From the sequence record NZ_CP118109.1: a stretch of DNA of 64,000 nucleotides. One strand, written 5' to 3'. The stretch is from a plasmid. Of this stretch, positions 29,490 through 54,993 are shown one piece after another; within the stretch, counting starts at the first letter, position 1; every line of letters begins with the position of its first letter. Both the position numbers and the translations under genes were made by a program. The notes beneath the pieces are model-generated. The model did no database searches. It worked only from the letters and a program-made list of their open reading frames with translations, and had not been told where the DNA came from.

Positions 29490-29512
29490 AATAGGGGTTT
29501 TATGCCCCTATT
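29490..29512 (-). terminator. Hairpin spanning the stop codon of the 2787-aa gene, with a U-run after it. Candidate attenuator between the two giant genes.
   Basis: 8-bp perfect stem AATAGGGG / CCCCTATT with the loop CAUAAAA, which contains the TAA stop. It is followed by GCUUUUUACA and then the RBS of the next gene. Confidence 0.4.
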
Positions 29513-39320: not shown

Positions 39321-39368
39321 AATGTAATGCGTTACATTATACCATTATAAAGCCTGCTTATGTATAAA
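39321..39368 (-). promoter_or_regulatory. Internal late promoter with an extended -10 (TGGTATAAT) overlapping a copy of the 18-bp palindromic motif.
   Basis: The minus strand reads ...TTTATAATGGTATAATGTAACGCATTACATTGAAAGGAGGGTCGGTATG. Two overlapping TATAAT hexamers are present and the -35 is weak. The 18-bp motif is identical to the one at 6945-6962. Confidence 0.4.
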
Positions 39369-39403
39369 GAAAGGGTGTTCAGCGAAATGCTAAACACCCT
39401 TTT
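39369..39403 (-). terminator. Strong hairpin (a candidate bidirectional intrinsic terminator) that splits the tail-gene region into two transcription units.
   Basis: A 14-bp stem AAAGGGTGTTCAGC / GCTAAACACCCTTT with one mismatch and a GAAAT loop, 12 nt after the stop of the 149-aa gene. It is flanked by U-rich tracts on both strands. Confidence 0.55.
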
Positions 39404-39413
39404 GTTTGTTCGT

Positions 39414-39863
39414 TTATTCTTCTGTGGAACCGATTGTGTTCTTCTTCCGGTTGATATGCTCTTGTCTATTCTGCAGGAACTTAGCGGATTTGTCATGAGC
39501 ATATTCCAAATAGTTAATGAGCCAGTCTGCTTTTGCAGTTGTCCCATCTGTGATTTGATGCATGCCTAGGATTCTATCCAGCTCAGTTTTCACTTCCATA
39601 TCCTCAGCTGTAAGACTCATTCCGATCAGCTGCTTGTTTGCGATTCTCATGAAAGAGAATAAGATGAACTCCAAAGCGGCCGTGCCTTGATTAGGCTGAA
39701 TCTTCTCAGAAGACATTTCAAACAATACTTTAGTTACCATAGCTTGTTCTGCTTCAGAAAGAGTAGCGTATACTTGCGGATTCATTTCACCGGATTCGAT
39801 TTGACTGCGAAGGTCGGCTTCTTGTTTTACCTCTTCAGCTACTAATGCGATTCTTTCTCTCAT
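39414..39863 (-). CDS. Hypothetical 149-aa acidic helical protein (a possible fibre assembly or chaperone role is purely positional).
   Basis: ORF at the end of the fibre cluster, directly before the terminator. Confidence 0.4.
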   Translation of the reverse strand: MRERIALVAEEVKQEADLRSQIESGEMNPQVYATLSEAEQAMVTKVLFEMSSEKIQPNQGTAALEFILFSFMRIANKQLIGMSLTAEDMEVKTELDRILGMHQITDGTTAKADWLINYLEYAHDKSAKFLQNRQEHINRKKNTIGSTEE

Positions 39864-39876
39864 CGTAATCTCTCCT

Positions 39877-41025
39877 TTAGGACCAGGTTAGCCCGTAGTT
39901 ATATAATTTTGAATTTAACGGCAGCTCTATTTTGATACAGATCTTATTGTCCTTTGGACTAATCGAATCGCTGAAATAGAATAACGTATCAGGAGTGATA
40001 CTTTCCCACGTCACTCCGTTATCCCGTGAGATATGGTATAGAGCCCCCTCTGCTTCAGCAGATACGATCGCTTTGCTTGGGATGGCTTCGGCAATCTCTG
40101 GCGTGGTGATAACTACTCCAGCTGGATTATCGACTGGGTTTAAGCCTGCAGCTACATAGAAATAATCGTAAGTGTTATTATAGTATCTCGACTGAATTGT
40201 AATATATGGAGTAGCGCCGCCATACCCCTGGTTAAGATTTCTGTTGCTTACAATTTGCAGGCCGTTTATCCATATGTTCGCTACGCCTAACTCATTGGAA
40301 GCAATCAATTCAAACTCTTTCGTCGCATCAAATGTTCCGGCAGGGGCTAGTATTGTATTAGCTCCGAGGGTAATAGATCCATTTGGATTCGCTCTAATCC
40401 TATAGAAACTCCCTACATTAGCCCTTTCTGCAGAACAAATTGTTAGCTCCAAGAAGCCCTCTGGCTGGCCTTTTGTTCTGAGTTTTACTGTTATTGCACG
40501 AGAAGCAGTAAGGTTTCTTCTTAACGTGGCATTCCCGGATATCCAACTTGTGGTGGTAACTACTGTCGTTGTACCATCGGGATTCACTTCGAATCTTGCA
40601 TTGGATGCTGTGAATCCAAGGGTAGTAGGAGAAACATCACCTTCCCATTTAGCTGTCCATGGTACGACTGATCCAAGTTGTGGAGTTACTTCCCCGAGTG
40701 CTGCATCCAGTTTATAGCTTGAGCTTCTGCTAGCATCAATACCTGAAGCATCCAGAAAGTCTTCGAAGACCATGTTGGTCAGCTTATATCGTTTGCTTTG
40801 AGCAATGACATTGAGCTTAGCATTTGCCTTCATAATGTTGACGGCATCTTGAATGATAAGCTTGTCTGCCATGTACACTACATTCTGAATATAGTCTTCC
40901 AGCATATCAACACGCTCTTTTACACTCTCGTAGTCGCCTTGGACTCCTACCCCGAGTGTGGTGTTCCTCATCTTCTTCTCATCTGAGGCTGCCTTATTGG
41001 CCGTTCCATAACTAATTACATCCAT
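39877..41025 (-). CDS. Fibre/receptor-binding-like protein, family B paralog 3 (MDVIS N-terminus, KYKLTNMVFEDFLDASGID motif). Its C-terminal module is related to the RCC1-family C-terminal domain (ends YGLTWS).
   Basis: It shares the N-terminal MD(I/V)IS..KA motif and the KYKL.D.V.D.F.D..G.D.S block with the ORFs at 45399, 52289 and 46831. Its C-terminal LYHISRDNGVTWESITPD...YGLTWS parallels YFVSIDDGETWKEVNPD...GLSYSWV. Confidence 0.5.
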   Translation of the reverse strand: MDVISYGTANKAASDEKKMRNTTLGVGVQGDYESVKERVDMLEDYIQNVVYMADKLIIQDAVNIMKANAKLNVIAQSKRYKLTNMVFEDFLDASGIDASRSSSYKLDAALGEVTPQLGSVVPWTAKWEGDVSPTTLGFTASNARFEVNPDGTTTVVTTTSWISGNATLRRNLTASRAITVKLRTKGQPEGFLELTICSAERANVGSFYRIRANPNGSITLGANTILAPAGTFDATKEFELIASNELGVANIWINGLQIVSNRNLNQGYGGATPYITIQSRYYNNTYDYFYVAAGLNPVDNPAGVVITTPEIAEAIPSKAIVSAEAEGALYHISRDNGVTWESITPDTLFYFSDSISPKDNKICIKIELPLNSKLYNYGLTWS

Positions 41026-41039
41026 CGTTTAATGCCTCC

Positions 41040-42692
41040 TTAAGTCCAAGAATAAGATAAGCCGTATAATTCAAGTCCGTTTTCAAGAATCGTTTTTATT
41101 TTTAATTCGTTACCTTCCGGTAGATCAGAAAGATTCGTCAGCTCATCTGGAGTTACTTCTTTCCATGTGGTTCCATCATCTCTGGAAACATAGTATCCCG
41201 GACTTGTTGGATTCGTTAATTCTGCTTCCAAAGATAGAGATTGAACTGTCGGAGTAGCGACACTCATATCAACGAAAGCATCTACACCTCGAAAAGAAGG
41301 AGATATCTTCTCGTTTGTCGTCCACATGACTGTTGCTACATAAAAGGTGATTCCATCGAATGGAGCCAGCTGTTCAGCTGTAAGAGCCTTTAACTCTTCG
41401 GATGTCATCCCCTTGGCTGCTACATCGTTGACGTCTGTTTCAGAGATAGGAGCATCAATCCATGTTTCACTTTCCACATCAAATCTCTTCCAGGTTTCCT
41501 TATCTGTAGATAGGAAGTATCGAATGCCGGTGGAGGCTGAAACAGATTCTTGAGCTTCAAGTCCTCGTATGTTCGGAAGATTGCAGGTTCCGATAATCTT
41601 AAACGGCTGATCTATTGTGTAAATCAAATCCTTAATCTCATTTTTAAATTTAAGGAAATTCGTATTACTTTCATCTTGCAGCATTGCCGGATAACCTGTT
41701 TTGTTTTCTATATCGTTCATGGCTATACGTCCTGTAAAATAAATGTCCATTGAATCAGTGATGACTAAGAAAGCACCGTTTTGTGATGTTGCATCAATAT
41801 CATATGCTGGAGGCAGCGGGGTGCCGTCCTCATCCATAATCATTTCATTCCAGACTAATGAATTAGTTAAATTACCAATGCCAAGCGTGCCTTGGGTGTT
41901 GTTGCCCGTTGTATGCACTTTATTATCTAGATCTAAAGCAATAGTATTATTGTATCCTCCAACTGCCTTTTTCACATTATCTTTCATATAAACGAGGCTG
42001 GCTGAATTAGCACTTGTTCCGTATGCTAGCCCATATCCACTTCCACATCCATATAATTTGTTCTCAAACGTTAAAAACAATGAATGATTTAGTCCTGGCG
42101 ATATTTCTTTTACTCTCTCTTTTAGTTCAGGGAATACTTCTGTGAATTGATTGGGCGCACTATCTCCTATTCTATTAAACAAATTTGATCCAGAGGCCAT
42201 TACTCTTCCATCAAGCATTATTACCCAGCTAAAGCCAGGTCCTGCATAAACTTTATGAACGCCATCTATTACTTTAGTCCATGTAGGCACACTGCTAGTA
42301 TGATTCAGCCCCAATTCCCCGTTGCCATTAAATCCCATAGCCCATAAAGAATTATCTTCTTTAATAGCAAAGGAACAATCTGTTCCGGCTGCACAATATT
42401 TGACGCCTTCCATTATCTCTGTTATGACGCTATATTGCTGTTGGCCTTGCTCCAAGAATATGCCATTAGCATTGTTATTATTAAGACCCACCCCATAAAG
42501 TTTATCATTTATAATGAGTAATGTGTGATTGGGGCCTGCTGATACTTGCCTTGGCTTATAAGGAATTAATGTTGGGACAGCAATCGAGCCTCCAGTTGCC
42601 CACCCAAACATTCCTTTACTGTAACTATTATTTCCAACAAACCATAACTGGCCATCAATATCTTCAAAATAACTGCCTCTAGCATTAGCCAT
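41040..42692 (-). CDS. RCC1-repeat beta-propeller protein (family C paralog) with a conserved C-terminal module ending GLSYSWT. Putative receptor-binding protein.
   Basis: Multiple G.N..GQLG/ G.G..GY.LA-type blade motifs. C-terminus is YYVSRDDGTTWKEVTPDELTNLSDLPEGNELKIKTILENGLELYGLSYSWT. Confidence 0.6.
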   Translation of the reverse strand: MANARGSYFEDIDGQLWFVGNNSYSKGMFGWATGGSIAVPTLIPYKPRQVSAGPNHTLLIINDKLYGVGLNNNNANGIFLEQGQQQYSVITEIMEGVKYCAAGTDCSFAIKEDNSLWAMGFNGNGELGLNHTSSVPTWTKVIDGVHKVYAGPGFSWVIMLDGRVMASGSNLFNRIGDSAPNQFTEVFPELKERVKEISPGLNHSLFLTFENKLYGCGSGYGLAYGTSANSASLVYMKDNVKKAVGGYNNTIALDLDNKVHTTGNNTQGTLGIGNLTNSLVWNEMIMDEDGTPLPPAYDIDATSQNGAFLVITDSMDIYFTGRIAMNDIENKTGYPAMLQDESNTNFLKFKNEIKDLIYTIDQPFKIIGTCNLPNIRGLEAQESVSASTGIRYFLSTDKETWKRFDVESETWIDAPISETDVNDVAAKGMTSEELKALTAEQLAPFDGITFYVATVMWTTNEKISPSFRGVDAFVDMSVATPTVQSLSLEAELTNPTSPGYYVSRDDGTTWKEVTPDELTNLSDLPEGNELKIKTILENGLELYGLSYSWT

Positions 42693-42706
42693 TTCCGTTG
42701 CTCCTT

Positions 42707-43141
42707 CTATTCATGTGACCTTAATAGGAATTTATTAACTGTCCTATATGAGTATAAGATTACTTCCTCATTTGAGTATTCCAATTGCTTCACGGGAGTT
42801 CTCCTTATTAAGCCTATATCTTCATTGCTTGATTTAAGCTCAAGTGTACTTCCGGATCGTTGTATCTCACCAGTATCAAATTCCGGTGCAGATGCATTCG
42901 CCATGGCGACAATCTCTCTGAATCCTGTGAGGGCAAGCCTTACCTTAATGTATCTTTCCAGCTGTACTGTATCAATAGACACATGCTCACCAAACTGGAT
43001 GCCATCTTTTGATGTAGCCACACTGACTCCAATCTTTCCTGATCCGCCAGATACTGCATCAAACCGATCGATCTTCGAAACATTATCCCCAAGATCAATG
43101 ACCTCTGACTCCCATATTCCTGAGCCTTCAAAATAGTCCAC
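42707..43141 (-). CDS. Small 144-aa protein, family D paralog (SGIWESEVIDLGDN ... DGIQF ... ERYIKVRL).
   Basis: GTG start with the SD AGAGGTG. Paralogous to the 44845 ORF and to an internal segment of the 52289 ORF (GTWESEILDLGEGW). Confidence 0.45.
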   Translation of the reverse strand: MDYFEGSGIWESEVIDLGDNVSKIDRFDAVSGGSGKIGVSVATSKDGIQFGEHVSIDTVQLERYIKVRLALTGFREIVAMANASAPEFDTGEIQRSGSTLELKSSNEDIGLIRRTPVKQLEYSNEEVILYSYRTVNKFLLRSHE

Positions 43142-43172
43142 TCATTTCACCTCTTTAAAAGAGTGTAACACA

Positions 43173-44825
43173 TTACACCCATGAATAAGAAAGTCCGTGT
43201 AGCTCTAATCCATTATCCAATACTGCTTTAACCTTTAGCTCTTTGCCTTCTGACAGATCGCTCGTATTAGTCAACTCGTCTGGATTTACTTCCTTCCATG
43301 TCTCTCCGTCATCTATGGAGACAAAGTATTGTGGTCCTTTTGGCTCCTTAACAGAATAGTCCATTGTAACTGAAGCAACTACAGGAGTCGAAGCATTTAG
43401 ATCAATGAAAGCATCAATCCCGCTAAAGATTGGCGTAGTACTTGGATCGCTTGTAGCCAATGAAATGGCCACATAGAACGTAATACCAACTAGCCATTGC
43501 ACTTGCTCTGGAGGAAGACTTTCAACATCGGCAATAGTCATGCCGACTGTTTCGATTTCATCAAGGCTGGTTTCCACCCACTGAGCGCTAGCTTTATCAT
43601 ATCTCTTGTAGATCGATTGGTCTGAAGAGATTAAAAGCTTTGCAGTTGTTCCGTTTGGATAGATTCCTTTAATCTTTAAGTTTTGGATTCCGTTTTGCGG
43701 AGCGCAAGTAGCAATTAATCTTGCCGGCTGGTTTACAGGATACGTTTTAGGCTTTGAGATATTCGGTAGTATCATGATATCTTGTACATTTCGTTTTATT
43801 GGCGTCAAAACGTCCGACGTAGCAGTCGTCCCTTGTTGGCCATATACTTGTGACCCTACCGCATACAAATCCAGCGTGTCTTGAAGAAAATAAGATGCGA
43901 CGGTTCCCAAAAAAACCTGAGTTATATTCGACAAGCTATTAATCTGCTCAAATCTTAATCTCTTTTCGCTGTCACCCAGACCTAAGCTTCCACTACTATT
44001 ACTTCCTGTACCCCAAGCACTCCCATCATTTTTAACATAAACCGTATTGTACAAGGATCCATCTACCGTTTTCACATCTACATCAATTAAGATAGGCGTG
44101 GTTTGATTTACTGTATCGCCTGTGCCTAAGTTTCCGTTTGTATTATGCCCCCAACCATAAAGTTCCGATTGGGAATTAATATAAAATCCACTATAGTTCG
44201 AAGTAAATATTTCCCTAATATCTTCATCTATAGCCTCCAGAATTTTGATAAATTTATTATTGGCTGATACAGAATTAAGCAAAAATCCATATGTGTTGCT
44301 TCCAGCACCATAAATAGATCCGTCTGAAAGGAGAAGTATGGATGCGGAAACACCGCATGCTACCTTTTTAGCTGTCATTCCTTCAGGAAGAGGAACTTTA
44401 CTAAAAGTTGTTACATTGTTTCTATGACCTAAACCTAGTTGGCCATTATTATTGTTTCCTGTTGCATAAACCTCTCCGCTTCTTGTAATCGCCAATGCAA
44501 AATTTGATCCGCATGCTATATCTATTACATCCGATATGGTAGGAATAATAGCTATCGTGCCATTATTAATAGTTGTTCCTTTTCCAAGCTGACCTAAAAC
44601 GTTGTCACCCATTCCATATAGGTTTCCATCTTCACTTAAAGCTATTGCAAAGTTGATTCCCATAGACACTTTAATGAACTTCACACCTGGCGCTCTCGTA
44701 TTCTCGCTGAATACTGTTAAGTTACCGCCACTTCCGTTACCAATCTGACCTTTATCATTTTGTCCCGCAGAAACAATTTTATTATCTTTATTAATTAAGT
44801 GAATAAAGTTAGAAGCATGCGCCAT
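43173..44825 (-). CDS. RCC1-repeat beta-propeller protein (family C paralog) with a conserved C-terminal module ending GLSYSWV. Putative receptor-binding protein.
   Basis: At least 6 blades, each with a G(Q/N)LG(L/K/T)G motif. The C-terminal about 55 aa are nearly collinear with those of the 41040 ORF. Confidence 0.6.
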   Translation of the reverse strand: MAHASNFIHLINKDNKIVSAGQNDKGQIGNGSGGNLTVFSENTRAPGVKFIKVSMGINFAIALSEDGNLYGMGDNVLGQLGKGTTINNGTIAIIPTISDVIDIACGSNFALAITRSGEVYATGNNNNGQLGLGHRNNVTTFSKVPLPEGMTAKKVACGVSASILLLSDGSIYGAGSNTYGFLLNSVSANNKFIKILEAIDEDIREIFTSNYSGFYINSQSELYGWGHNTNGNLGTGDTVNQTTPILIDVDVKTVDGSLYNTVYVKNDGSAWGTGSNSSGSLGLGDSEKRLRFEQINSLSNITQVFLGTVASYFLQDTLDLYAVGSQVYGQQGTTATSDVLTPIKRNVQDIMILPNISKPKTYPVNQPARLIATCAPQNGIQNLKIKGIYPNGTTAKLLISSDQSIYKRYDKASAQWVETSLDEIETVGMTIADVESLPPEQVQWLVGITFYVAISLATSDPSTTPIFSGIDAFIDLNASTPVVASVTMDYSVKEPKGPQYFVSIDDGETWKEVNPDELTNTSDLSEGKELKVKAVLDNGLELHGLSYSWV

Positions 44826-44844
44826 AAAAAATCCCCCTCTTTAA

Positions 44845-45387
44845 TTAGTAATCACCTTTTATAAAATAGCTGCTGCCGCTTGAAGATATCTCTTCAGGTT
44901 GATTACTGGATTCGACTGCTGAGATTCCCACGATTCTTTTTAAAATTATAGTTGATTCGTTTAGGAAAGCTGAGACACCTATAGCATTCACACCAGAATC
45001 ATGTTCAGAAACAGTATCAATATCTAATATCCTTTTCATGATGCCATTCGTTGTCTTCAGTCCGATGTCATGTAGATTCAAATCAGAAAGGCCTTCATCC
45101 TTAAATGTTACTGAGTCAATATCGGTATTTCCGGTTATGAGTACACCAGGTGATAATTCTATTCTAAATCGAATATATCTCTGCACTGCAATACCTGAGT
45201 CAGCTGCTCTAAAATCAGAGAACTGGATTCCATCTGGAGAGTCAGCTATCAAAACATTGGTTTTCGCTGGGCTATCAAAACCGTCAGGAATTGAAATAAC
45301 CGGATTCAGTGACATGTATGATTTATAATTATCGCCTAGATCGATTACTTCTGAAGTCCAGGATCCCGAAGCCATATATTCTTCCAT
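44845..45387 (-). CDS. Small 180-aa protein, family D paralog (SGSWTSEVIDLGDN ... DGIQFSDF ... QRYIRFRIEL).
   Basis: Block similarity to the 42707 ORF. Located between an RCC1 gene and a family B gene. Confidence 0.45.
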   Translation of the reverse strand: MEEYMASGSWTSEVIDLGDNYKSYMSLNPVISIPDGFDSPAKTNVLIADSPDGIQFSDFRAADSGIAVQRYIRFRIELSPGVLITGNTDIDSVTFKDEGLSDLNLHDIGLKTTNGIMKRILDIDTVSEHDSGVNAIGVSAFLNESTIILKRIVGISAVESSNQPEEISSSGSSYFIKGDY

Positions 45388-45398
45388 TTTAAGCCTCC

Positions 45399-46784
45399 TT
45401 ATCTGGCAGGTGCACGTTTCAATTGAATGCTGCCATCGACTAGCTCTGTATTCTCAAACGTGCCTTTAGTTAAATCAAGAACATAGGTTTCGCTATCCTT
45501 AACCGATCCAGATTGTGCGACAACCACGAAAGTAGGTTTGGCATCGAGAACTTCGGCTATTGTTATTAATTCAGCGCTTCCCGCCCCACCTGTGTACTTA
45601 TGCAATGCTTCATCATAAGTCACATTGATTGAGCTTTCCTTATCCACCCCTGACTGATCTCTAAAGTCGTCAACGATCATGTCTGTCAGCTTATACCGAC
45701 TTTGATTGAGAAGGGCTGATACGCGAAGGTTATGCTTATTTAAGTTAATGGCCGTCTTCTTTTCCGTTTCAGAAATGATAGTATTGATTGGCTTTGACTT
45801 ATATAAAATAGAGAGCTTAGTTAAGCTAAGGCTTTTATCTGTTGGTGCTTCAATTTTCACCTTAAACTTCTTATTGAACTTCGACTCGATACTTCCAGCT
45901 TCTCCGATCGGCACAAATCCTTCACCAGTATCAGTGTAAATAACTGCACTAGTAAAGTCGTTTTCAACAAAGATAGGCAGTGTTTCAGCCATTTCATAAA
46001 GCTGCGTCCGCCCAATAATCAGAGTTGTAACTGCAGAAGATGTTGCTTTCTCAAAATAGAAACGGTAATACCGGTATTTAATACTGTTAGAGAAATTAAA
46101 CGTTCTGACAATTGCAGTAAACCAGCTGTCTCGATATCCTCCCCAGTCGCTTGTAGTCGCTGTCTGAGCATCTATCACATTCCAAGTATTCCCGTCATTA
46201 CTTCCTTCAAATCTCCAAGACCCTGGCATTCTATCTGCGTAAAAAGTCCCGCTCGTATTCTCAGTGCCCGTGGACATAGAATATTGAGTGATGAGTTTTT
46301 CTTCTCCAAGATCAATAGTAACAAAAGAGTTAGATGGACTTCCTCTCCACGCAGATCTCCAAACGTCACTAAACATACTGTATCCTGTTCCGCTTGATTG
46401 TGTAACCACTAGTGGTGCAGGGGCGGTGTTCGAAGTCATACTAGGAATTAATGCAGTATACTCACCTTCAGGTACAACTTTTGTTTGGATGCTTACTTTC
46501 TCAAGTTGGACTGCATCTTCCAATTCAATATCGCCAATCCACGTTCCCTTTCCTGTTAAGACGCCATCTGCAACAGAGACATTAGTAAGCTCTGCATCTT
46601 TCCATTTCTCATCAGATTGAATTGTATAGATTCCTTCATCTGATCCGATCCTTTTCGCCTCTAACGCTTCAAGTCTTTCCTTGGCATTAGCATAAATATC
46701 TTGGACTTCTGCACCTATTCGATTTGAAAGATTATTCATCTCTCGTTTGGCCTTATTCGCTTTTTGCAACGAAATAATATCCAC
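45399..46784 (-). CDS. Fibre/receptor-binding-like protein, family B paralog 2 (MDIIS N-terminus) with a discoidin-like domain (PGSWRFEGSNDGNTW) and the RYKLTDMIVDDFRDQSGVD block.
   Basis: Shared N-terminal and KYKL-block motifs with the ORFs at 39877, 52289 and 46831. Confidence 0.5.
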   Translation of the reverse strand: MDIISLQKANKAKREMNNLSNRIGAEVQDIYANAKERLEALEAKRIGSDEGIYTIQSDEKWKDAELTNVSVADGVLTGKGTWIGDIELEDAVQLEKVSIQTKVVPEGEYTALIPSMTSNTAPAPLVVTQSSGTGYSMFSDVWRSAWRGSPSNSFVTIDLGEEKLITQYSMSTGTENTSGTFYADRMPGSWRFEGSNDGNTWNVIDAQTATTSDWGGYRDSWFTAIVRTFNFSNSIKYRYYRFYFEKATSSAVTTLIIGRTQLYEMAETLPIFVENDFTSAVIYTDTGEGFVPIGEAGSIESKFNKKFKVKIEAPTDKSLSLTKLSILYKSKPINTIISETEKKTAINLNKHNLRVSALLNQSRYKLTDMIVDDFRDQSGVDKESSINVTYDEALHKYTGGAGSAELITIAEVLDAKPTFVVVAQSGSVKDSETYVLDLTKGTFENTELVDGSIQLKRAPAR

Positions 46785-46830
46785 TCATGCCACCTCTTTT
46801 ATGAAGTAAGATAAGGGGTAGGGATAAACC

Positions 46831-49047
46831 CTACGCCCAAGAATATGCAATGCCTTGCAATGATGCACCAGTAGGAATTGTTGCTTTAATCCGCAGGCTA
46901 TTACCACTCATTGCTGAGATATCAATAATTTGTTCCGCTCCTGCATTTACCCAGGTCTCTCCGCCGTCTAAAGAGAAAGCGTAAGTGACTGTGGCTGATC
47001 CGTCCGGAATGATAACCAGACTAGTTCTTGATGCAGGAAGAGTTTCGATCGGCATAACTACAATGCCGCTGCCGTCATATTCTTTGTTAATTGTATCATA
47101 AACGGCTGTGGTCAGCGATTCATCTACGCCAGTGTTTGTATCGAATGTATCGATAACTAGATCATGCAGCTTGTATTTTTCTATAGCAAGCAAAGCATTG
47201 CTCTTGAAATTGAGCTTTGCCATGTTAATTGTGTTGATTCGCTCCAAATCCTCTAAGCGCCCTTTAATTGTAAGCTCATCATAAGTCACCTTTATCGACT
47301 CAATGTAAGGCGTTACAGTTGTGATAGCATTAGCTGTAAAACTAATTTCGTCTGCGTATACTTCATCCTGTAAGGATTCCATTTCAAGATAGTAAGCGAA
47401 ACGGATTGTATTTGAAGACTGAATCAACATATTCCACTGATCACCGGTAAGACTGTTGAACGACTCTGATGTCATTCCGCTTGTCTTAACCCCCGGAAGA
47501 TCAGCTGCGACTGTGATCCAGTTCGAACCATCCCATGCTTTCCATGTTTGCCCTTGATCAACACTAGCAATGGCTTTTATTCCCACAGCATTTAAGCTAA
47601 TAGAATTTAAGCCTTCAGTAGGGATTAACATATCGCCTGCTGGCATTATGAGTTTTCCATGAGGAACTGCTTCTATACTAACCGTCCTTTTAGCACTCGT
47701 GTCATCCGTCCACATTAGCAGCTTTGCTTCGCCTCTCAGCTGATCAAATGGAGTAAAGGGCTCCGCTTCAAATATTATTTTTTCCTCTCTTGTCTCTTCC
47801 GAGGAGTACTGAAGTATACTGAAATTATCTTTCAGTTCATTCCATAACACTGATGATATATCTGAAATTGAGTCTATCCCTTTATCTAGGAAAAGTTCCT
47901 CTGTGGCTGGTGACTCTCCAACAACGAACCATCCTAGATCAGGACTATACCCTTTAATTTGATTATCTTCTGCGATCAGGAATTTTGTTTTAATCTCAAT
48001 TATCTGCTCCCAAAGTGATTTAACTCCGGAAAGAGGAATCTCTGCTGCACGTATTTTGCTTGTTGTATTACCAGATCCTAGCTGTCCATTGTTATTAAAC
48101 CCTGTTGTTCTTACAGTTCCATCTTCCATCAAAAACGCAGTATGGATATCTCCACAGGATATTTGCTTGATTCCAGAAAGCTCTATGCTTACAGGAGTTG
48201 TATAGCTTGAACCAGTATCTCCAATTGACATTTGCCCATTTGAGTTATATCCGCATGTCTTTGCCGTGCCGTCTTCCATAAGAAACATCGTATGATAAAA
48301 TCCGCATACAATATCTTTTGCTCCTGATACAGGAATATCAACAAGAAAAAACTGTGTGCCGCCTCCTACCCCCAGCTGTCCATTTGAGTTATATCCACAA
48401 CCTTTTACGTCTCCATTTTCTAATAAGAATACTGTTCTATTGTTATAGCATGCTATCTTCTTGACACCCGAAATTGGAACATCAATGGGAGAGTTCGATT
48501 GATTCAGCGTGTTTCCAACACCTAGCTCTCCATATCTGTTATAACCTGTTGCCTTTACCGTACCATCTTCCATGAGGAACATTGTATGCGTTGCGCCACA
48601 AGACACCTGCTTAACATTTGAGATGGCCACATCTGTAGGGATTGTTTTATTTTGTGTATTTCCAATTCCTAATTGTCCGTTTCCGTTGATTCCGACGGTT
48701 TTGACTGTCCCATCTTGCATCAAAAATACTGTATGATAACTTCCACAAGAAACTTGCTTTACATCTGAAATTTGGACATCGACAGGCGAAAGTTGATTTG
48801 CAGTGTTTCCAATACCTAACTGTCCATTGCCATTAAGCCCTGTTGCCTTTACAGTTCCATCATTCAGCAAAAACATCGTAGAGGCGTCTGAAAAAGAAAC
48901 TTGCTTTACGTTTGAAATTCCAATTTTGATAGGGGTTGAATTTACTGACCCTGTGCCGCCAGTCCCCAGCTGGCCAGAACTATTCAATCCGGCCGCCATT
49001 ACAGAGCCATCTTCCATTATAAAGAACGAAAATCGTCCTGTAGCCAT
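46831..49047 (-). CDS. Mosaic 738-aa protein: an N-terminal 7-blade RCC1 beta-propeller, a central family-B-like block (KYKLHDLVIDTFDTNTGVDES), and a C-terminal family-C-type module ending GIAYSWA.
   Basis: Seven G.NG(Q/E)LG.G motifs. The rest is by block similarity to the family B and family C paralogs. Confidence 0.6.
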   Translation of the reverse strand: MATGRFSFFIMEDGSVMAAGLNSSGQLGTGGTGSVNSTPIKIGISNVKQVSFSDASTMFLLNDGTVKATGLNGNGQLGIGNTANQLSPVDVQISDVKQVSCGSYHTVFLMQDGTVKTVGINGNGQLGIGNTQNKTIPTDVAISNVKQVSCGATHTMFLMEDGTVKATGYNRYGELGVGNTLNQSNSPIDVPISGVKKIACYNNRTVFLLENGDVKGCGYNSNGQLGVGGGTQFFLVDIPVSGAKDIVCGFYHTMFLMEDGTAKTCGYNSNGQMSIGDTGSSYTTPVSIELSGIKQISCGDIHTAFLMEDGTVRTTGFNNNGQLGSGNTTSKIRAAEIPLSGVKSLWEQIIEIKTKFLIAEDNQIKGYSPDLGWFVVGESPATEELFLDKGIDSISDISSVLWNELKDNFSILQYSSEETREEKIIFEAEPFTPFDQLRGEAKLLMWTDDTSAKRTVSIEAVPHGKLIMPAGDMLIPTEGLNSISLNAVGIKAIASVDQGQTWKAWDGSNWITVAADLPGVKTSGMTSESFNSLTGDQWNMLIQSSNTIRFAYYLEMESLQDEVYADEISFTANAITTVTPYIESIKVTYDELTIKGRLEDLERINTINMAKLNFKSNALLAIEKYKLHDLVIDTFDTNTGVDESLTTAVYDTINKEYDGSGIVVMPIETLPASRTSLVIIPDGSATVTYAFSLDGGETWVNAGAEQIIDISAMSGNSLRIKATIPTGASLQGIAYSWA

Positions 49048-49074
49048 TTATGTCACGCTCCTTTTTATGATCTA

Positions 49075-51135
49075 TTAGATGTTTGCATTCTTGATAGTTA
49101 CTCCTGCTTTATTAACAACAGCCTGCTTTATAAACCCGCCTCCATGGGCAGTAGGGGTATCGTATGCTGCATCAATACTTGTTTTTTTAACGAAGGCCTG
49201 ATTAAAAGATTCCATGGCTTGATCAAACATTTCTTGAGTAGCAGGCGCCTGTCCAACTACAATCCACCCAGATTCAGGAGAATATGTTTTAATCTCTTCT
49301 CCATCTTGTATAAGGAACTTTTGAATGATAGGTGGCGGCTCGATTTCTAAGACTGGTCTAAATCCCGGTGCAGCACTAGACGTAGCTGATGCGCCCATTG
49401 CAGTTACAGTGCCGCCTCCTCTCAATGTTCGGTAGGTCGCACTGTTGTTGTGAGTTGTAGAAGTCCATGAACCATAAACACCATAATTCCAAACATTATT
49501 ATCTCCGGCTGTAATTGCCCCGTTTAATGAAGAGTTGACGATATATATATCCCATTGGTTATCTTTATTGGCAGAACTATTACCCCCAGTCATTAAACGC
49601 ACTGTGCCTTCGCTGCCATTATCAGAGACAAGCGCCTTAACACCGCTTCCAGAGGCAACGCCCGAGCTATTTAATTCATTCCATGTAATATTAGTTTGAA
49701 TATTTCGGTCTGCAATAAGAATCTTCTTGCCATTCCAATCTTCAACCATAATGAAATAGAAGTCTCCATTTGGCACAGATGGGCCAGATGGCGCTAGGAA
49801 ATCGCCTGTCTCTTTCCCGAGATTACTAAACGCTCCCACCGTCCCGCTGGTCGTTACAACGTAATTACATCTTATGCGCTTGCCTACTTCAAGATTAGCA
49901 ACATCGGTTGCTTCATCTGGATGTAGAAGGCGGCCATCAGCTTTAATATCAACAGCATCAAAGACGATTAAGCCCGTCCCTGTAATCTCAACTACATGCT
50001 CATTACTGTCAGAGAGAGTTTTCTCGTAGGCTAGTCTTTGTTGCATTAGTGTATCTCTAATAGAGAAAACCTCTTCGACACCATCTATTCGAACTATCAC
50101 ATTATTTGAATGTTCAGTGTTTGTTTTAGCAATAATGCGAATGCGATCGCCCGTAAAACGAAATGATATTACATCTGTGTCTACAGATGCGTTATTGCAG
50201 ACTCTGGTTACACCTTTGTATGCTCCTGTATCTCCTGCGCTATTTGCAGTCCAGCTCCCTTTATATTTAAAACCTGGATACTGATCATCATATCTCTTCC
50301 ATCCATCCTGCGGTGCAGTTAGCGCTCCTCCTATTAAAGGAAGTATGCTGCCATCTCCATCAATATCAAACGCATTAAACTGTGAGTACCAATCACTCCC
50401 TGTGTGGGTTGTAATTGTTGCTACATGATTTGAGTCGGTGAGATCAAGTATTTCAAATACTACTTTATTTGACTCATTAGCAGCCGGAAGCAGTTCATAT
50501 TCTACTCCATCAATATCTAAGACATCGAAAACATTATAATTATATAAAAGTCTGAGCTTCGAGCCTGAAAACCTAAATTTTATTGTACCTGCATTATAGT
50601 TAATATCACTTGATACTCTATTGGCAGCATATTGAATAAGCGGATCATTGTTCTCTATACGCTTCCATCCAGCTTCCGGGCTGGTTAATTGGCCACCAAT
50701 CAATACCGTTAAATATCCACCTTCATCAATATCAATAGCATCAAAATAGAAGTACTTAGCAATAGAGTCCGCACTAACCTCAACGGTATGGAAGCCTAAA
50801 GGAAGCCCATTCTTTTCATACTGTAATGCCTGAAATAAAGTGCTACCCCCTACGGAGCTAAATGTTTCAGATATACCATCTATAGTGATTTTTACTGATT
50901 CATGATAATCTTCTGTGTTCGAATTGTAGCCAATCCATCTTATTTTAGTCCCATAAAATCTGAAGGATACCTTCGCATTCGCATTAGCTGATCCATTATA
51001 TAGCCCGGATCCACCGTAATGACCTTCATTAGTTGAGCTTCCCCAACTTCCAGACAAAACAAATTTACTATCTGTATTGTCAATACGTTTCCATCCTGTT
51101 TCTGGAGCAGTTAATGTTTGTCCTATTGTTGCCAT
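49075..51135 (-). CDS. 686-aa protein with three tandem roughly 130-aa internal repeats (each I GG/Q (Q/A)LT(A/S)PE/Q(T/A/D)GWKR ... F(D/N)A(I/F/V)DI(D/K)), a central FYFIMV...LIADR block, and a C-terminal GFRPVLE motif. Putative carbohydrate-binding fibre protein.
   Basis: The internal repeats are visible by eye at residues about 1-135, 136-270 and 271-400. The C-terminal motif is shared with the 51139 ORF. Confidence 0.5.
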   Translation of the reverse strand: MATIGQTLTAPETGWKRIDNTDSKFVLSGSWGSSTNEGHYGGSGLYNGSANANAKVSFRFYGTKIRWIGYNSNTEDYHESVKITIDGISETFSSVGGSTLFQALQYEKNGLPLGFHTVEVSADSIAKYFYFDAIDIDEGGYLTVLIGGQLTSPEAGWKRIENNDPLIQYAANRVSSDINYNAGTIKFRFSGSKLRLLYNYNVFDVLDIDGVEYELLPAANESNKVVFEILDLTDSNHVATITTHTGSDWYSQFNAFDIDGDGSILPLIGGALTAPQDGWKRYDDQYPGFKYKGSWTANSAGDTGAYKGVTRVCNNASVDTDVISFRFTGDRIRIIAKTNTEHSNNVIVRIDGVEEVFSIRDTLMQQRLAYEKTLSDSNEHVVEITGTGLIVFDAVDIKADGRLLHPDEATDVANLEVGKRIRCNYVVTTSGTVGAFSNLGKETGDFLAPSGPSVPNGDFYFIMVEDWNGKKILIADRNIQTNITWNELNSSGVASGSGVKALVSDNGSEGTVRLMTGGNSSANKDNQWDIYIVNSSLNGAITAGDNNVWNYGVYGSWTSTTHNNSATYRTLRGGGTVTAMGASATSSAAPGFRPVLEIEPPPIIQKFLIQDGEEIKTYSPESGWIVVGQAPATQEMFDQAMESFNQAFVKKTSIDAAYDTPTAHGGGFIKQAVVNKAGVTIKNANI

Positions 51136-51138
51136 ATA

Positions 51139-52287
51139 TTACACCTCCTTATATTCAAGCACTGGACGGAATCCAACTTGAATGTTGGCATTATCAGAAC
51201 TATAAGTGTTATAGAAAGCGACCCCATTAGATCCGCCTCTTATAACTCTCCTAGCTGCTGATCCTGAGCTTATTCCGTCAGAACCGGTGTCTTGTGTCCA
51301 TGTCATACATTCAGCAAAATGAAATATGTCATTTAACGTTTTACCTTCTTGTATTCGGCTCTCTGGATATTTTGTGATATAGCGATCCCATTCATTATTG
51401 GTCGGCCAAGCTCCCTGTGGTGGATTCTGTTCAGTTAAAGCTTTATTTCCTTCAGAATCCGCGAAGGCAACTCCACCTGTAAGTGTTCTAATTACTCCTG
51501 AGACTTCGAATAGCTGCATCTCTTGAATAGAGAGATATGTAGCATCTCCACTATTAGCAGACACATTAATTCGATATTTGGAATAAACCTTTTTATTTGC
51601 AAATGAGAAATTCATGAATGCATTGCTCGCCCACCCAATAATGCCAATTCGTTGATCGAGAATAACCCATCTTGACTCAGTTTCATCCCATGCTTCAAAT
51701 GTCCAGTCTTTAGGGCTTCTTAATAGATTTGAAATTTGAGGACATACTGCATATCCTGTAATAACCCTAGGCTCTGGAAAATCATATTGTAACCATCCGC
51801 CTATTGTTGAATTAGTCACCCAAGCATTGCCTGCATTCGAAATATTGCCATCAAAGGCTTTAAACGCGGGTTGTCCAACCCATTCACTGCTGGCACTTGC
51901 CAATCCACTAGGCACAGTATTACTGGTCATCACAGGGATATTATTTCCACTATTCCATGGAACCCCTTCTATATGCTTTGTTTTATTCAGATCATTCCAG
52001 CTTCCGGTTTGGCCTGTTAAGCAAATCCTATCCGCAATAAGGAGCCCCTTGGAGACTTTGATAAAATAAAAATATCCTATATGAGCATCGACACCATTTG
52101 ATGAGTAAGTTAATCCAGTCAAAGGCATCTCTTTATTAATCCCGGCACCGTCATTTAATTCGTCAATTTTCCCTAAGTGATTAAATATTCTACTGGGGTT
52201 CACTTGTAATCCGCACTTAATATAATCCCCTATTTCCATTTCGGCCACTTTTGTTCTCAACAGACCTGTTGTTGCTGGCGCTGCCAT
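51139..52287 (-). CDS. 382-aa protein with an N-terminal FYFIKV...LIADR block (shared with the 49075 ORF), a discoidin-like domain (AFDGNISNAGNAWVTNSTIGGWLQYDF), and a C-terminal VGFRPVLE motif.
   Basis: Block similarity to the 49075 ORF at both the N-terminal block and the C-terminal motif. Confidence 0.5.
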   Translation of the reverse strand: MAAPATTGLLRTKVAEMEIGDYIKCGLQVNPSRIFNHLGKIDELNDGAGINKEMPLTGLTYSSNGVDAHIGYFYFIKVSKGLLIADRICLTGQTGSWNDLNKTKHIEGVPWNSGNNIPVMTSNTVPSGLASASSEWVGQPAFKAFDGNISNAGNAWVTNSTIGGWLQYDFPEPRVITGYAVCPQISNLLRSPKDWTFEAWDETESRWVILDQRIGIIGWASNAFMNFSFANKKVYSKYRINVSANSGDATYLSIQEMQLFEVSGVIRTLTGGVAFADSEGNKALTEQNPPQGAWPTNNEWDRYITKYPESRIQEGKTLNDIFHFAECMTWTQDTGSDGISSGSAARRVIRGGSNGVAFYNTYSSDNANIQVGFRPVLEYKEV

Positions 52288-52288
52288 A

Positions 52289-53794
52289 TCACTTCACACT
52301 CACTTTCTCTATAGACTTAAATGCCGTCTTATCTATTATTGCAGAATAGATAGCTCCACCTTCTGTGACGGATTCTTGATTCATAGTTTCTGAATAAGAG
52401 GTTTTTAGTTGCAACTTTCCATCAGCAATTGTTTGATCATTGAGGGTGAATTTGTTTTGATCGCTAGACTGGTTGAAGTCAAAAGAGGTAGTTTCTCCTT
52501 GCGCTGCTCCAGCAGAGATGCTGGCTTTAAATTTTACAAACTTAGTTTGAGGCATCGTTGTAATTGGCTGATATGAATCGAAGTTTATCCCGTCTTCAGA
52601 GCCTGCAACTTGAATATCAACTTCACCTTTACCTTCAATGAGCTTTAATTCTCCGATGTTAGTATAGGAACTTCCGCCGTTGTTGTTAAAACAGTACACC
52701 CGGTAATGAGTATATGCTGTAGAATTATCTACCTTAAAGTCTCTGGAGACAAGATATGCCCAACCTGTTTGATTTTCTTGTTCATCAAGCACTATCCAAT
52801 TCGTTCCATCGTTGCTAGCTTCAAAACGCCAACTTTTTGGAGCACGATGCATTTGGTCGTTTCGGGTTGTAACCATTCGATATTCATTAATAACAATCGG
52901 CTTTGTGAATCTGAATCCAAGCCATTGATTTGTTGTGCCTGCTCCTTGCCATCCCATTGCACTTTCAACCTGGTCAAATGCCTCAATGAGTGCAGCATTT
53001 CCAAAGTAAGATGAGCTTGCAATAATTGTCCCAACTTCATTAGATATTGCTGTCATTGGTGGTGTTGCAATTAATCCTTGTATGCCGACAACCTGCCTTA
53101 TGGTTTCTAAAGTAGAAAGCCATCCTTCTCCAAGATCCAAGATTTCGGACTCCCATGTTCCTTTAGACAGATAAGTGTTTGCGATAGCTCTCTCATACAT
53201 TTTTACACTTCTGAGGGCGATCCTGTAAGTCAAGCCGCTGTACCCTATCATATCAGCCATTTTGTAGTATCGATAGTAGTTCTCATTTACAAAAACATGA
53301 TCATAGCTTGCTGATGCGTTCTGGTTTCCAGAGTAAAGCAAGTCGAAGTTTTCATTGTCATTCGATCCGTACAATTTAAATGATTGTAAATTATAGCTCA
53401 TTCCATTCCAGTTGTAGGTGCTACCATTTATCCAAACTTTTTCTATCCGCTTTTTTTGATCTACTCCAGCATCAAAAGTAATAGAATTTCCAAAGGCGAA
53501 AATAGTTTGATTTACAACATCCCAAGATGGGCCATAACCTTCTCCGATGATTTCGCCAGCTTTTTTTAGTCGAAGAGCGCCTGAGCTATATTCCGCTCCA
53601 TTAAACATGCCACTAGAAAGATCCACGCTTTTTGAACTAATTGCCTTTGCTTTTGCCGCCTGTGCCTCAAGCCAATCCAACCGTGCATCGACGGTTGGGA
53701 AGTGGCTTTCAGCTTGAGGCGCAACAATGCTCTCACTTAGCTCTTTAATCTGATTCATTGCTTGAGTTGCTTTACCAAGTGAAATAATATCCAT
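52289..53794 (-). CDS. Fibre/receptor-binding-like protein, family B paralog 1 (MDIIS N-terminus, 501 aa) with two discoidin-like domains and an embedded family-D-like segment (GTWESEILDLGEGW).
   Basis: Shares the N-terminal MDIISLGKA motif. Contains APKSWRFEASNDGTNW discoidin-like block. Confidence 0.5.
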   Translation of the reverse strand: MDIISLGKATQAMNQIKELSESIVAPQAESHFPTVDARLDWLEAQAAKAKAISSKSVDLSSGMFNGAEYSSGALRLKKAGEIIGEGYGPSWDVVNQTIFAFGNSITFDAGVDQKKRIEKVWINGSTYNWNGMSYNLQSFKLYGSNDNENFDLLYSGNQNASASYDHVFVNENYYRYYKMADMIGYSGLTYRIALRSVKMYERAIANTYLSKGTWESEILDLGEGWLSTLETIRQVVGIQGLIATPPMTAISNEVGTIIASSSYFGNAALIEAFDQVESAMGWQGAGTTNQWLGFRFTKPIVINEYRMVTTRNDQMHRAPKSWRFEASNDGTNWIVLDEQENQTGWAYLVSRDFKVDNSTAYTHYRVYCFNNNGGSSYTNIGELKLIEGKGEVDIQVAGSEDGINFDSYQPITTMPQTKFVKFKASISAGAAQGETTSFDFNQSSDQNKFTLNDQTIADGKLQLKTSYSETMNQESVTEGGAIYSAIIDKTAFKSIEKVSVK

Positions 53795-53809
53795 TGGTGT
53801 CCACCGCCT

Positions 53810-54343
53810 TTATACGATTGTGGTAGTTGTTGAAATACCTGTGATGTTCCCAGTGGCAGAATCATAATTGTAAATCTTTTTGATCGTCACGTTCTTGCCG
53901 CCCGGATCCGTATACTTTTTCTCCGAATAATTCAAGATACCGTTAGCAGCATCCGTATAGACATAATCAATCGTGAAAGCTACATCGCCTGTGACGGTAT
54001 GCTTATTCACGTTACCGCTTGTATCATAACTGAATACCTCATTGAAATTACCGTATTCACCAAGCATATTGATCTTTGTCTTTAGGTCTTGAACGTCAGC
54101 TGTACCTGCAGTTAAATCTTCAATACGCTCTATGACGTTCTTTCCGGTAGACTCTTTATCATCGACCAGGGCTTGAATTAAAGCTTGGTAGGAATCATCC
54201 AATCTCTCGACTGTAATATCCAATCCAAGTTCTTCAATCTTAGCCGCAAGGGTTTCTTTGCCGAAACGAGAGTTCTCAATATCCACCAGAAGCTGTCGAA
54301 TCTCAAACGCCAGGTCTTCTCGTAATATTTTAGTAGTTGCCAT
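53810..54343 (-). CDS. Hypothetical 177-aa tail/baseplate-associated protein.
   Basis: ORF in the operon with the SD GGAGGGAAT. No recognisable motif. Confidence 0.4.
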   Translation of the reverse strand: MATTKILREDLAFEIRQLLVDIENSRFGKETLAAKIEELGLDITVERLDDSYQALIQALVDDKESTGKNVIERIEDLTAGTADVQDLKTKINMLGEYGNFNEVFSYDTSGNVNKHTVTGDVAFTIDYVYTDAANGILNYSEKKYTDPGGKNVTIKKIYNYDSATGNITGISTTTTIV

Positions 54344-54357
54344 TGCTTATTCCCTCC

Positions 54358-54942
54358 TTATGCGTTCACATATAGTAAGTCGTAGTTCACAAGAATTTTG
54401 GCATTTATCGGGGGCGCCTCTACCATAGTGATCTTGTTTCCTTCGATCACATAGTCCTCTTCTTCCCCACGGTCACGCAGTATGCCGTTTAAAAACACCA
54501 GTTCTGTATTGTCTCTTGGCGTTCGGCTCAAGAAAAATATCTTGTTCACTCCATCTATGACACCGATTGGTTTCTCACGATAGGCATGGAAATGATCGAC
54601 TACATATGCAACACCCTGCCCTTTGCCTGCCATGCGAAGCTCGACTATATCACCGTCTACAAGTGGCTCTAGGAATCGTATCGTGTTCTGATCAAATTCA
54701 ACGTAGTCGCCATTGAATAGTACAGGGTCAACAGTAGGGACTGCCTTTTGACCATTGAGGAAGACAAGCAACTCTCCATCGCCAGGCTGATATGGCTTGC
54801 CTACGGGAATATCTTTCTGTCCTGATTGGGGCGTAACAAACTCATAATATGGTTTTCCAATCCCATTTAACTGCTCAGCTAAGCTGCTCTGCTCCGGATC
54901 TTGTGACCGGACCTGCTCTACACGAATGCGATGGATCGCCAT
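54358..54942 (-). CDS. Hypothetical 194-aa baseplate-module protein with an internal duplication (LLVFLNGQKAV...DYVEF and LVFLNGILRD...DYVIE).
   Basis: Located directly downstream of the baseplate-J-like gene. The duplication is visible by eye. Confidence 0.4.
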   Translation of the reverse strand: MAIHRIRVEQVRSQDPEQSSLAEQLNGIGKPYYEFVTPQSGQKDIPVGKPYQPGDGELLVFLNGQKAVPTVDPVLFNGDYVEFDQNTIRFLEPLVDGDIVELRMAGKGQGVAYVVDHFHAYREKPIGVIDGVNKIFFLSRTPRDNTELVFLNGILRDRGEEEDYVIEGNKITMVEAPPINAKILVNYDLLYVNA

Positions 54943-54993
54943 GTATATTCCACCTTTCTGTTTAGTTTAGTACATTATACCGAACCAAACAAC

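Follow-up and report, generated by a model that had tools for sequence, protein, structure and literature searches.

What is a block of RCC1-propeller and lectin-like genes doing on an element deposited as a bacterial plasmid? The question is raised by a 64,000-nucleotide stretch of sequence record NZ_CP118109.1 (the whole of which is called the window below), where positions 39414-53794 hold eleven minus-strand open reading frames (ORFs), here named g01 to g11 in transcription order (Table 1). A preliminary description, made from the letters of the sequence, had treated them as fibre-like genes in which diversified binding heads are combined with a shared C-terminal module. We consider it probable that they belong to an accessory baseplate-appendage module, running from the upstream gene u2 to g11, that encodes about ten virion-surface adhesins produced by domain shuffling; the true extent of the block is 39414-54942. 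The eleven genes look functional because every start codon is preceded by a ribosome-binding site (GGAGG-type Shine-Dalgarno), the intergenic gaps are tight (1-46 nt), and a terminator follows g11.

Three "hypothetical proteins" of a 214,846-bp Paenibacillus urinalis "plasmid" (locus tags PUW25_263xx-264xx) have exactly the sequences of g07 (WDI05105.1), g04 (WDI05108.1) and g10 (WDI05102.1). The entire window has one transcribed strand and a G+C content of about 43%. Just downstream of the block lies a gene (37863-39305) with homologs in two phages, ORF162 in Bacillus phage 0305phi8-36 and a virion protein in Moorella phage MTATph1, and the gene order is that of both phages: giant glucosaminidase hub, gpV-like gene, gpJ-like baseplate gene, variable block, ORF162-like gene, giant fibre. 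Because of the ORF162 homology and the matching order, the window is, on sequence grounds, to be read as a 0305phi8-36-like jumbo myophage genome deposited under the label "plasmid". The P. urinalis element may be a phage-plasmid or a carrier-state phage.

Within this genome, g01-g11 are encoded inside the baseplate/fibre module, syntenic with 0305phi8-36 and MTATph1, and occupy the slot between a P2 gpJ-like baseplate gene (54994-55842) and the ORF162-like gene. In 0305phi8-36 the same slot holds orfs152-161, every one annotated as verified in virions by mass spectrometry (MS); relative to the phage BtI1 it is one of three large modular insertions (Hardies et al., PMC2147016). Direct homology adds to the positional match. 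The product of u2 is homologous to gp152 (E 2e-11), g10 is weakly collinear with gp153, and a hidden Markov model (HMM) of the C-terminal end module discussed below (the CMOD HMM) finds the gp153 C-terminus and an internal site in gp154 (E 4e-6 and 9e-6); it missed gp133-135. Because gp152, gp153 and gp154 are all MS-verified virion proteins, we read the block products as baseplate-peripheral appendages that would likewise be incorporated into the virion.

Paralogy among the block genes is far beyond chance. All-versus-all BLASTP pairs g07 with g09 over their full length (E 6e-76), g04 with g07 (E 5e-31), g01 with g02 (E 2e-17), g06 with g08 (E 1e-11), g05 with g10 (E 5e-9) and g02 with g03 (E 3e-5). 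The five paralog families proposed at the outset are recovered, and the ORFs lie at exactly the coordinates first given; g11 falls outside all of them, and the block is better described from its sequence as ten mosaic genes plus a singleton. An N-terminal MDI/VIS module is common to g01, g05 and g10. A helical "CC" module occurs in g04, g05 and g10, a "mid" beta-sandwich of about 120 amino acids (aa) in all three RCC1 proteins (g04, g07, g09), and a "link" segment both at the g03 C-terminus and at residues 352-395 of g04 (50% identity, E 5e-9). Discoidin domains (F5/8 type C, PF00754, cut-off 28.2 bits) score 43.9 bits in g01 and 29.4 in g05; the g02 copy scores 24.9, below the cut-off, yet g02 is a paralog of g01 at the E value given above. 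The families first listed therefore stand, although that inventory had missed discoidin, CC, link, mid and the CE2_N-like repeats of g03. The GFRPVLE domain of g02 and g03 (49075-52287) carries the conserved motifs WPTNNEWD ... RGG ... GFRPV, which are reminiscent of the formylglycine-generating enzyme (FGE)/C-type-lectin fold of the Mtd-like targets of diversity-generating retroelements. A profile search of PDB sequences gave no support for that fold, and in a search for a template/variable pair the 3' ends of g02 and g03 took part in no long direct repeat.

By the profiles for the RCC1-like domain (Pfam PF25390 / PF00415 / PF13540), g04, g07 and g09 carry true RCC1-like propellers. PF25390 scores them at 260, 195 and 157 bits (E 5e-77, 2e-57 and 1e-45) against a cut-off of 150, and g07 matches the solved structures of UVR8, HERC1/2, RPGR and RCC1 at E 1e-36 to 1e-21 in PDB sequences; on these sequence grounds the suggestion of three RCC1-propeller proteins is upheld, and the fold assignment with it. 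As to blades, the g07 match spans positions 2-344 of a 363-position profile, and g04 has seven RCC1_2 stretches; a single-sequence AlphaFold2 (AF2) model of g07 has a predicted local distance difference test score (pLDDT) of 35. The PDB matches of g07 include no phage-derived chain. The g04 blades (48055-48880) also form a nucleotide repeat with a period of 147 nt and 60-74% identity, which suggests that blade homogenisation may be more recent in g04 than in g07 or g09.

The propellers share their C-terminal unit, mid plus end module, with much else. An Asp-box end module of 55-60 aa closes g04, g07, g09 and also g10, the non-RCC1 gene beginning at 39877, just as had been noticed (a module of roughly 55 aa). 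Its pattern is Y-x-V-S-x-D-x-G-x-T-W ... K ... L ... Y-S-W, with the alignment invariants Y, S, D, G, T, W ... K ... L ... W, and its HMM finds exactly those four copies in a six-frame translation of the window (E 1e-7 to 8e-29). Between g07 and g09, identity is 28% in the RCC1 part, 33% in mid and 69% in the end module. An exhaustive HMMER search with the C-terminal halves of g07 and g09 against 1.84 billion cluster representatives returned 179 proteins at E <= 1e-3, 75 of them at E <= 1e-10 (a word-indexed homolog search with the C-terminal profile gave 6 matches). Heads and modules were mapped on the 146 listed of these 179 matches. The end module is present in 107 of the 146 and lies no more than 12 residues from the C-terminus in 100 of the 107. 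The heads vary: 46 proteins have discoidin (alone in 36), 16 have RCC1, in some cases as two propellers, and 11 have CE2_N and/or GFRPVLE, 6 of these together with discoidin; 71 are without a recognised head. The idea of one C-terminal module combined with diversified heads is thereby borne out. The same module had been thought specific to this cluster, and there the evidence points the other way: judged by its distribution, which includes gp153 and gp154 of 0305phi8-36, it is lineage-wide, neither generic nor cluster-specific.

Known families say little about this unit. Pfam has no family for mid plus end module, only the BNR/Asp-box motif, found in 21 of 31 members; the profile matched PDB sequences only through Asp-box motifs of sialidases. 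A reading of the end module as a Peptidase_S74-type intramolecular chaperone was rejected, since Pfam gave no such match in the block proteins or the 31 family members. A confident AF2 model of g07 residues 341-550, built from a 31-sequence alignment, has a mean pLDDT of 81.5 and consists of two beta domains with a flexible linker. Foldseek searches with it returned no PDB entry at E <= 0.001, and the best matches from predicted viral structures were Gp366 of phage G and gp133, gp154, gp153, gp167 and gp155 of 0305phi8-36. Reused short modules, including the approximately 50-aa "paralogue family a" to which gp154 belongs, have been proposed as virion anchors in 0305phi8-36 (Hardies et al., PMC2147016), and the end module may correspond to that family. 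The end module also matches 13-19 tandem repeats of "Reelin subrepeat B"/BNR type in two giant proteins, P0127 with 2309 aa and P0155 with 2490 aa, the latter a giant flagellin by its flagellin domains at both the N- and the C-terminus.

How heads and connectors are combined can be seen by comparing related phages. Scanning IMG/VR twice, with ORF162-like and gpJ-like genes as anchors, yielded 28 loci (five overlapping pairs were stitched), and the window modules were mapped onto all of their ORFs; the contig L034 was added through its protein P0122. About ten phages have a common skeleton in which the gpJ-like gene is followed by u2 and/or u1, then by genes of types A-B-C-D-E-F and g11, then sometimes by one or two small ORFs, and then by the ORF162-like gene. 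Type A consists of MDIIS, discoidin and a "small" domain; type B of GFRPVLE with a discoidin insert; type C of CE2_N, GFRPVLE, link, mid, CC and end module; type D of MDIIS, CC, discoidin and small; type E of a head, mid and end module; and type F of MDIIS, CC, a segment x and end module. In six relatives (ORF162 homologs 41-77% identical) the E gene matches g07/g09 from about residue 370 on, at 38-56% identity, and its N-terminal part is one or two discoidin domains. Among the compared loci RCC1 heads are found only in the window, L007 and L034. The window has three such genes, L007 a single one with 34% identity to g07 across 548 aa, and L034 a tandem pair at 34-39% identity to g09 (the second, P0122, 39% over its full length). 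Cassette number does differ among relatives, a point that the preliminary description had wanted checked. The first of the L034 genes (3924-5474) stops after mid and has no end module, so not every E-type protein requires one.

No RCC1 head is found in the closest relative, whose ORF162 homolog is 77% identical. Its C gene is a single gene of 984 aa, CE2N-GFRP-F58-GFRP-link-mid-CC-Cmod, corresponding to g03 plus the back part of g04 (42% identity over g04 residues 352-737), and its D gene (841 aa) corresponds to g05 plus g06, with g05 54% identical to its front. Because that single C gene covers g03 and the back of g04, the window has an RCC1 head placed on the link-mid-CC-end stalk of a C gene, with the link joint now present twice, and g03 looks like the front part of the relatives' single type-C gene. 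In L007, L010, L003, c25530 and L034 the C-terminal part of the D gene bears the small domain as a fusion (the L034 copy is matched by g08 at E 1e-12); in the window this domain has become free-standing twice, as g06 and g08, both standing immediately before an RCC1 E gene. What repeats is thus a D-type plus E-type gene pair, and not the sandwich of RCC1, small and RCC1 genes that had been proposed. Six more distant relatives (L013, L014, L017, L018, L019 and L021; about 9160-10001 in each) have the gpJ-like gene immediately next to the ORF162-like gene and lack the whole block of about 15 kb, which is therefore accessory. The comparison shows both the replacement of heads in one fixed slot and the recombination of a small connector set with varied heads.

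If the propellers sit on a baseplate, what are they for? The context of a baseplate operon argues against a Ran-exchange or chromatin function of g04, g07 and g09; prokaryotes are not known to have Ran. Bacterial RCC1 relatives are often fused to domains of extracellular type (Big_2, fn3, the type IX secretion system (T9SS) sorting domain, fimbrillin). Phage phiCD211 has an RCC1 gene among its tail-fibre genes, and Brevibacillus phage Jenst has RCC1 genes ahead of its integrase and lysis cassette (regions L032 7935-13214 and L033 5049-10298). Because the RCC1 heads alternate with discoidin, belong to a fold with extracellular fusions, and recur in the tail-gene context of phiCD211 and Jenst, the simplest reading makes them a further kind of binding head. 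That they should instead be intracellular, non-structural factors acting on DNA or nucleotides would agree with the filing of the phage RCC1 families PHROGs 7220, 4219 and 16766 under DNA, RNA and nucleotide metabolism, and with the DNA condensation or ordering role on which the authors of phAPEC6, a phage with eleven RCC1 genes, speculated (PMC7247149). We regard this as highly improbable and reject it on genomic context: the genes lie inside a baseplate/fibre operon, their C-terminal modules are held in common with MS-verified virion proteins, and discoidin carbohydrate-binding domains take the same slot in relatives. The PHROG category looks like a mis-annotation, the name having been transferred from the fold. 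A literature search for an RCC1 propeller as a tail, virion or receptor-binding component of phages found nothing beyond the phAPEC6 report. Such heads had been called an architecture outside the textbooks, which holds for the lack of any paper on the role found, but the tail modules of phiCD211 and Jenst already contain RCC1 genes. It is conceivable, and we offer it as a tentative proposal, that RCC1-like propellers are widespread but unrecognised exchangeable receptor-binding heads on phage tails, mis-filed elsewhere and here of reversed polarity, with C-terminal docking and the N-terminal head exposed.

The arrangement we propose would work as follows. Lineage-specific connectors (two helical modules, the MDIIS N-terminus and CC, along with link and two Asp-box modules, the mid beta-sandwich and the end module) would dock the proteins to the baseplate periphery or to one another. 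Interchangeable ligand-binding heads (RCC1 propellers of presumably seven blades, discoidin/F5-8C, CE2_N-like sandwiches and GFRPVLE) would point outward and bind varied ligands of the host surface, whether wall glycopolymers or surface proteins. Multivalent or alternative adsorption would be the outcome, and recombination at the conserved joints would install new heads. RCC1, discoidin and CE2_N are known binding scaffolds, and binding of host-surface ligands is presumably their task here too. We are less sure how the labour of docking is divided. The C-terminal unit might dock the E and C types while the MDIIS N-terminus docks the A, D and F types; docking by the C-terminus fits because the end modules of g07 and g09 are so much more alike than their propellers, suggesting a shared protein partner.

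Several points weigh against appendages docked in this way. For none of the eleven proteins is presence in a virion or binding to a cell more than an inference. Neither a trimerisation signal nor an enzyme domain nor a receptor was identified. The E and C types have a variable N-terminus and a constant C-terminus, the reverse of most tail fibres, and so a conserved N-terminal anchor with a variable C-terminus is not what g04, g07 and g09 display (g01, g05 and g10 do share an N-terminal module). Similar Asp-box sandwiches stand in tandem in a giant flagellin, which a spacer or adhesive domain would fit equally well. The products could accordingly be virion appendages whose end module is a distal cap (a wall-binding knob, a folding nucleus or an assembly domain), with anchoring through the MDIIS partners or through g06/g08. 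Most known fibres anchor via the N-terminus; tandem sandwiches in non-phage giant proteins, the flagellin insert among them, are typical of exposed spacer or adhesive domains; the fold weakly resembles jelly rolls like those of carbohydrate-binding modules; and the small gene directly ahead of each RCC1 E gene would fit the role of an adaptor. We nevertheless think a distal cap unlikely, considering that the end module is the most conserved part of g07/g09 and is conserved across phages, where receptor-contacting tips usually vary most, that neither Peptidase_S74 nor any other chaperone domain is matched, and that the reused short modules of 0305phi8-36 were themselves proposed as anchors.

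Nor need the adhesins be the determinants of host recognition. They could be decorations, "environmental" adhesins that stick weakly and reversibly to matrix, biofilm or soil polymers, with the downstream giant fibres as the true receptor-binding proteins. The block is dispensable, being missing in the six more distant relatives, and its slot is an indel between 0305phi8-36 and BtI1 (PMC2147016); the downstream 2787-aa protein with PA14 and invasin/Big_1 domains is conserved in all relatives; and lectin-like modules are plentiful in the block, with no enzyme domain found by Pfam. This again we judge improbable, to about the same degree, for heads turn over fast even relative to the closest relative, which is the signature expected of a host-range determinant, although the adhesin and receptor-binding roles are not mutually exclusive. 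Decay has the smaller chance of being the explanation, and we doubt it strongly. It would make the block a partly decayed part of a resident, plasmid-like relic, with the small genes and the g03/g04 split as remnants of broken fusions, and it draws on the three apparent gene splits that count against a working module: relatives have single genes where the window has g03 plus g04 and g05 plus g06, and g08 is an orphan with no D-type partner. The element was, moreover, deposited as a plasmid of a bacterial isolate. Against this, all the pieces have complete sets of domains, each with a start codon and a ribosome-binding site of its own; neither internal stops nor frameshifted fragments occur; the paralogs are old and diverged (no nucleotide repeat exceeds 77% identity) and still intact; and tandem RCC1 E genes are found in L034 as well. 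An appendage module with exchangeable heads remains the reading we prefer.

Table 1. Coordinates, make-up and profile matches of the accessory module and of the giant genes around it
Feature	Length (aa)	Type	Coordinates	Strand	Description	Profile matches
Giant fibre protein	2787		29500-37863		PA14 and Big_1/invasin D3	
1660-aa protein	1660		13110-18092		von Willebrand A domain	
Hub protein	2145		57019-63456		glucosaminidase domain	
u2	194		54358-54942	-	first gene of the accessory module, after the gpJ-like gene	
u1	177		53810-54343	-	conserved small protein at the head of the module	phrog_38581 E 4e-17
g01	501	A	52289-53794	-	MDIIS N-terminal helical module, "small"-type beta-sandwich, inserted discoidin	PF00754 E 3e-11, residues 257-383; phrog_34867 on residues 1-84
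g02	382	B	51139-52287	-	GFRPVLE domain, discoidin inserted at 113-272	phrog_30895 E 1e-40
g03	686		49075-51135	-	three CE2_N-like beta-sandwich repeats, GFRPVLE, link, short tail	PF17996 E 1e-10; phrog_10059 and phrog_11984, 3 stretches each
g04	738		46831-49047	-	RCC1 48013-49047, link, mid ~47320-47757, CC, C-terminal module 46834-46989	PF25390 E 5e-77; MID HMM E 1e-16; CMOD HMM E 1e-9
g05	461	D	45399-46784	-	MDIIS N-terminus, discoidin, helical CC module	phrog_38477 E 3e-42 over 1-423
g06	180		44845-45387	-	free-standing small (SGxWxSEVIDLGDN) domain	
g07	550	E	43173-44825	-	RCC1 43791-44825, mid 43386-43742, C-terminal module 43176-43349	
g08	144		42707-43141	-	second free-standing small domain, immediately before the second RCC1 E gene	
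g09	550	E	41040-42692	-	RCC1 41658-42692, mid 41256-41621, C-terminal module 41046-41216	
g10	382	F	39877-41025	-	MDVIS N-terminus, CC, unique middle, C-terminal module ~39880-40056	phrog_31511 E 2e-57; CMOD HMM E 1e-7
g11	149		39414-39863	-	singleton; best conserved gene of the block	
Terminator-like hairpin			39371-39402	-	closes the module; 14-bp stem, then UCUUUAU	

Some properties of the individual genes complete the picture. Homologs of u1 stand at the corresponding place in each of the six relatives for which the module start is covered, and on the partial contig L024. Residues 388-428 of g01 align with residues 33-73 of g08 (BLASTP), a version of the g02 protein free of its insert exists in one relative, and g06 has its own AAGGAGG site and a frame different from that of g05. 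The g10 protein is 61% identical to its ortholog in the closest relative. Orthologs of g11, at 34-74% identity, always come after the F gene; g11 has no paralog by all-versus-all BLASTP and no PHROG or NCBIfam match (the NCBIfam search of the block proteins gave no match for any of them), and from its position a role as a fibre-assembly helper is possible.

The hairpin after g11 has a folding energy of -21.7 kcal/mol (z = -7.65), and none of 200 shuffled sequences folded as stably. The -10-like 11-mer GGTATAATGTA has only two exact copies in the window, at 39333-39343 and 54971-54981, upstream of the ORF162-like gene and of u2, one copy at each border of the accessory module; the number by itself is not significant, as 21 of 100 shuffles yield at least two matches when one mismatch is allowed. 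A scan for promoter and terminator consensus sequences gave the same counts as in shuffles. The three giant neighbours, in the order of Table 1, parallel gp163, gp164 and gp147 of 0305phi8-36. The 14.4-kb block found no match in phage and plasmid collections by megablast, nor did g10 in phages by tblastn. The ORF162 homolog gave none either, whether looked up exactly or used to scan genome contigs.

The occurrence of RCC1 and discoidin heads on the same connector in the same baseplate slot amounts to a natural swap, and gives the first comparative argument for the role of RCC1 in phages. It suggests that phage "RCC1" genes may be surface-binding tail parts and not chromosome regulators, which would correct both the PHROG category and GenBank product names. 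That modular tail adhesins can share docking parts is an established principle, and RCC1 in phages is an uncharacterised architecture rather than an unseen one. The lineage-specific connectors (MDIIS N-terminus, CC, link, mid and end module) have no Pfam family, and the mid plus end unit has no solved structural relative; such connectors offer natural places at which heads could be engineered onto the baseplates of jumbo phages. In an otherwise slowly evolving and little-studied jumbo-phage lineage, the 15-kb block is an accessory module with fast turnover. Host-range evolution in the lineage thereby becomes testable, and a Paenibacillus urinalis strain that can be cultured apparently carries the element.

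Among known systems the closest is the baseplate/appendage module of 0305phi8-36, orfs152-161, with its reused "paralogue" anchor domains (Hardies 2007, PMC2147016; also Thomas 2007). Both occupy the slot between the gpJ-like and ORF162-like genes, both have u2/gp152 and, weakly, g10/gp153 in common, the end module recurs in gp153 and gp154, and in both a short reused module would tether different functional domains to the virion. Nearly all gene content differs, however: the 0305phi8-36 slot has no RCC1, MDIIS or discoidin genes. Branched phages with several receptor-binding proteins, such as CBA120 (TSP1-4), G7C and Klebsiella phiK64-1, dock these by their N-termini and carry beta-helix depolymerase heads. 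Like them, the block has several adjacent paralogous genes in which conserved docking modules are joined to exchangeable specificity domains; unlike them, it has lectin-like and propeller heads with no enzyme domain found, and its constant part is C-terminal in the E and C types. With RCC1, UVR8, HERC2 and RPGR the heads share clear sequence membership and, presumably, the seven-bladed propeller as a binding platform, and BLIP-II is a bacterial member of the same RCC1-like superfamily. They differ from that superfamily in their fusion to phage-specific Asp-box modules within a baseplate operon, with no Ran or chromatin context. In phiCD211 (one protein of 1759 aa), Jenst (two genes) and phAPEC6 (eleven genes), RCC1 is likewise found in or next to tail-fibre genes and is often multiplied, but the matches of g07 there end at residue 343-392, within or just after the propeller, leaving the C-terminal unit unmatched. 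The receptor-binding protein of the staphylococcal phages phi11 and 80alpha may offer a further parallel, again a beta-propeller as the receptor-binding part of a baseplate protein in a Gram-positive phage; that platform has five blades and comes from an unrelated family.

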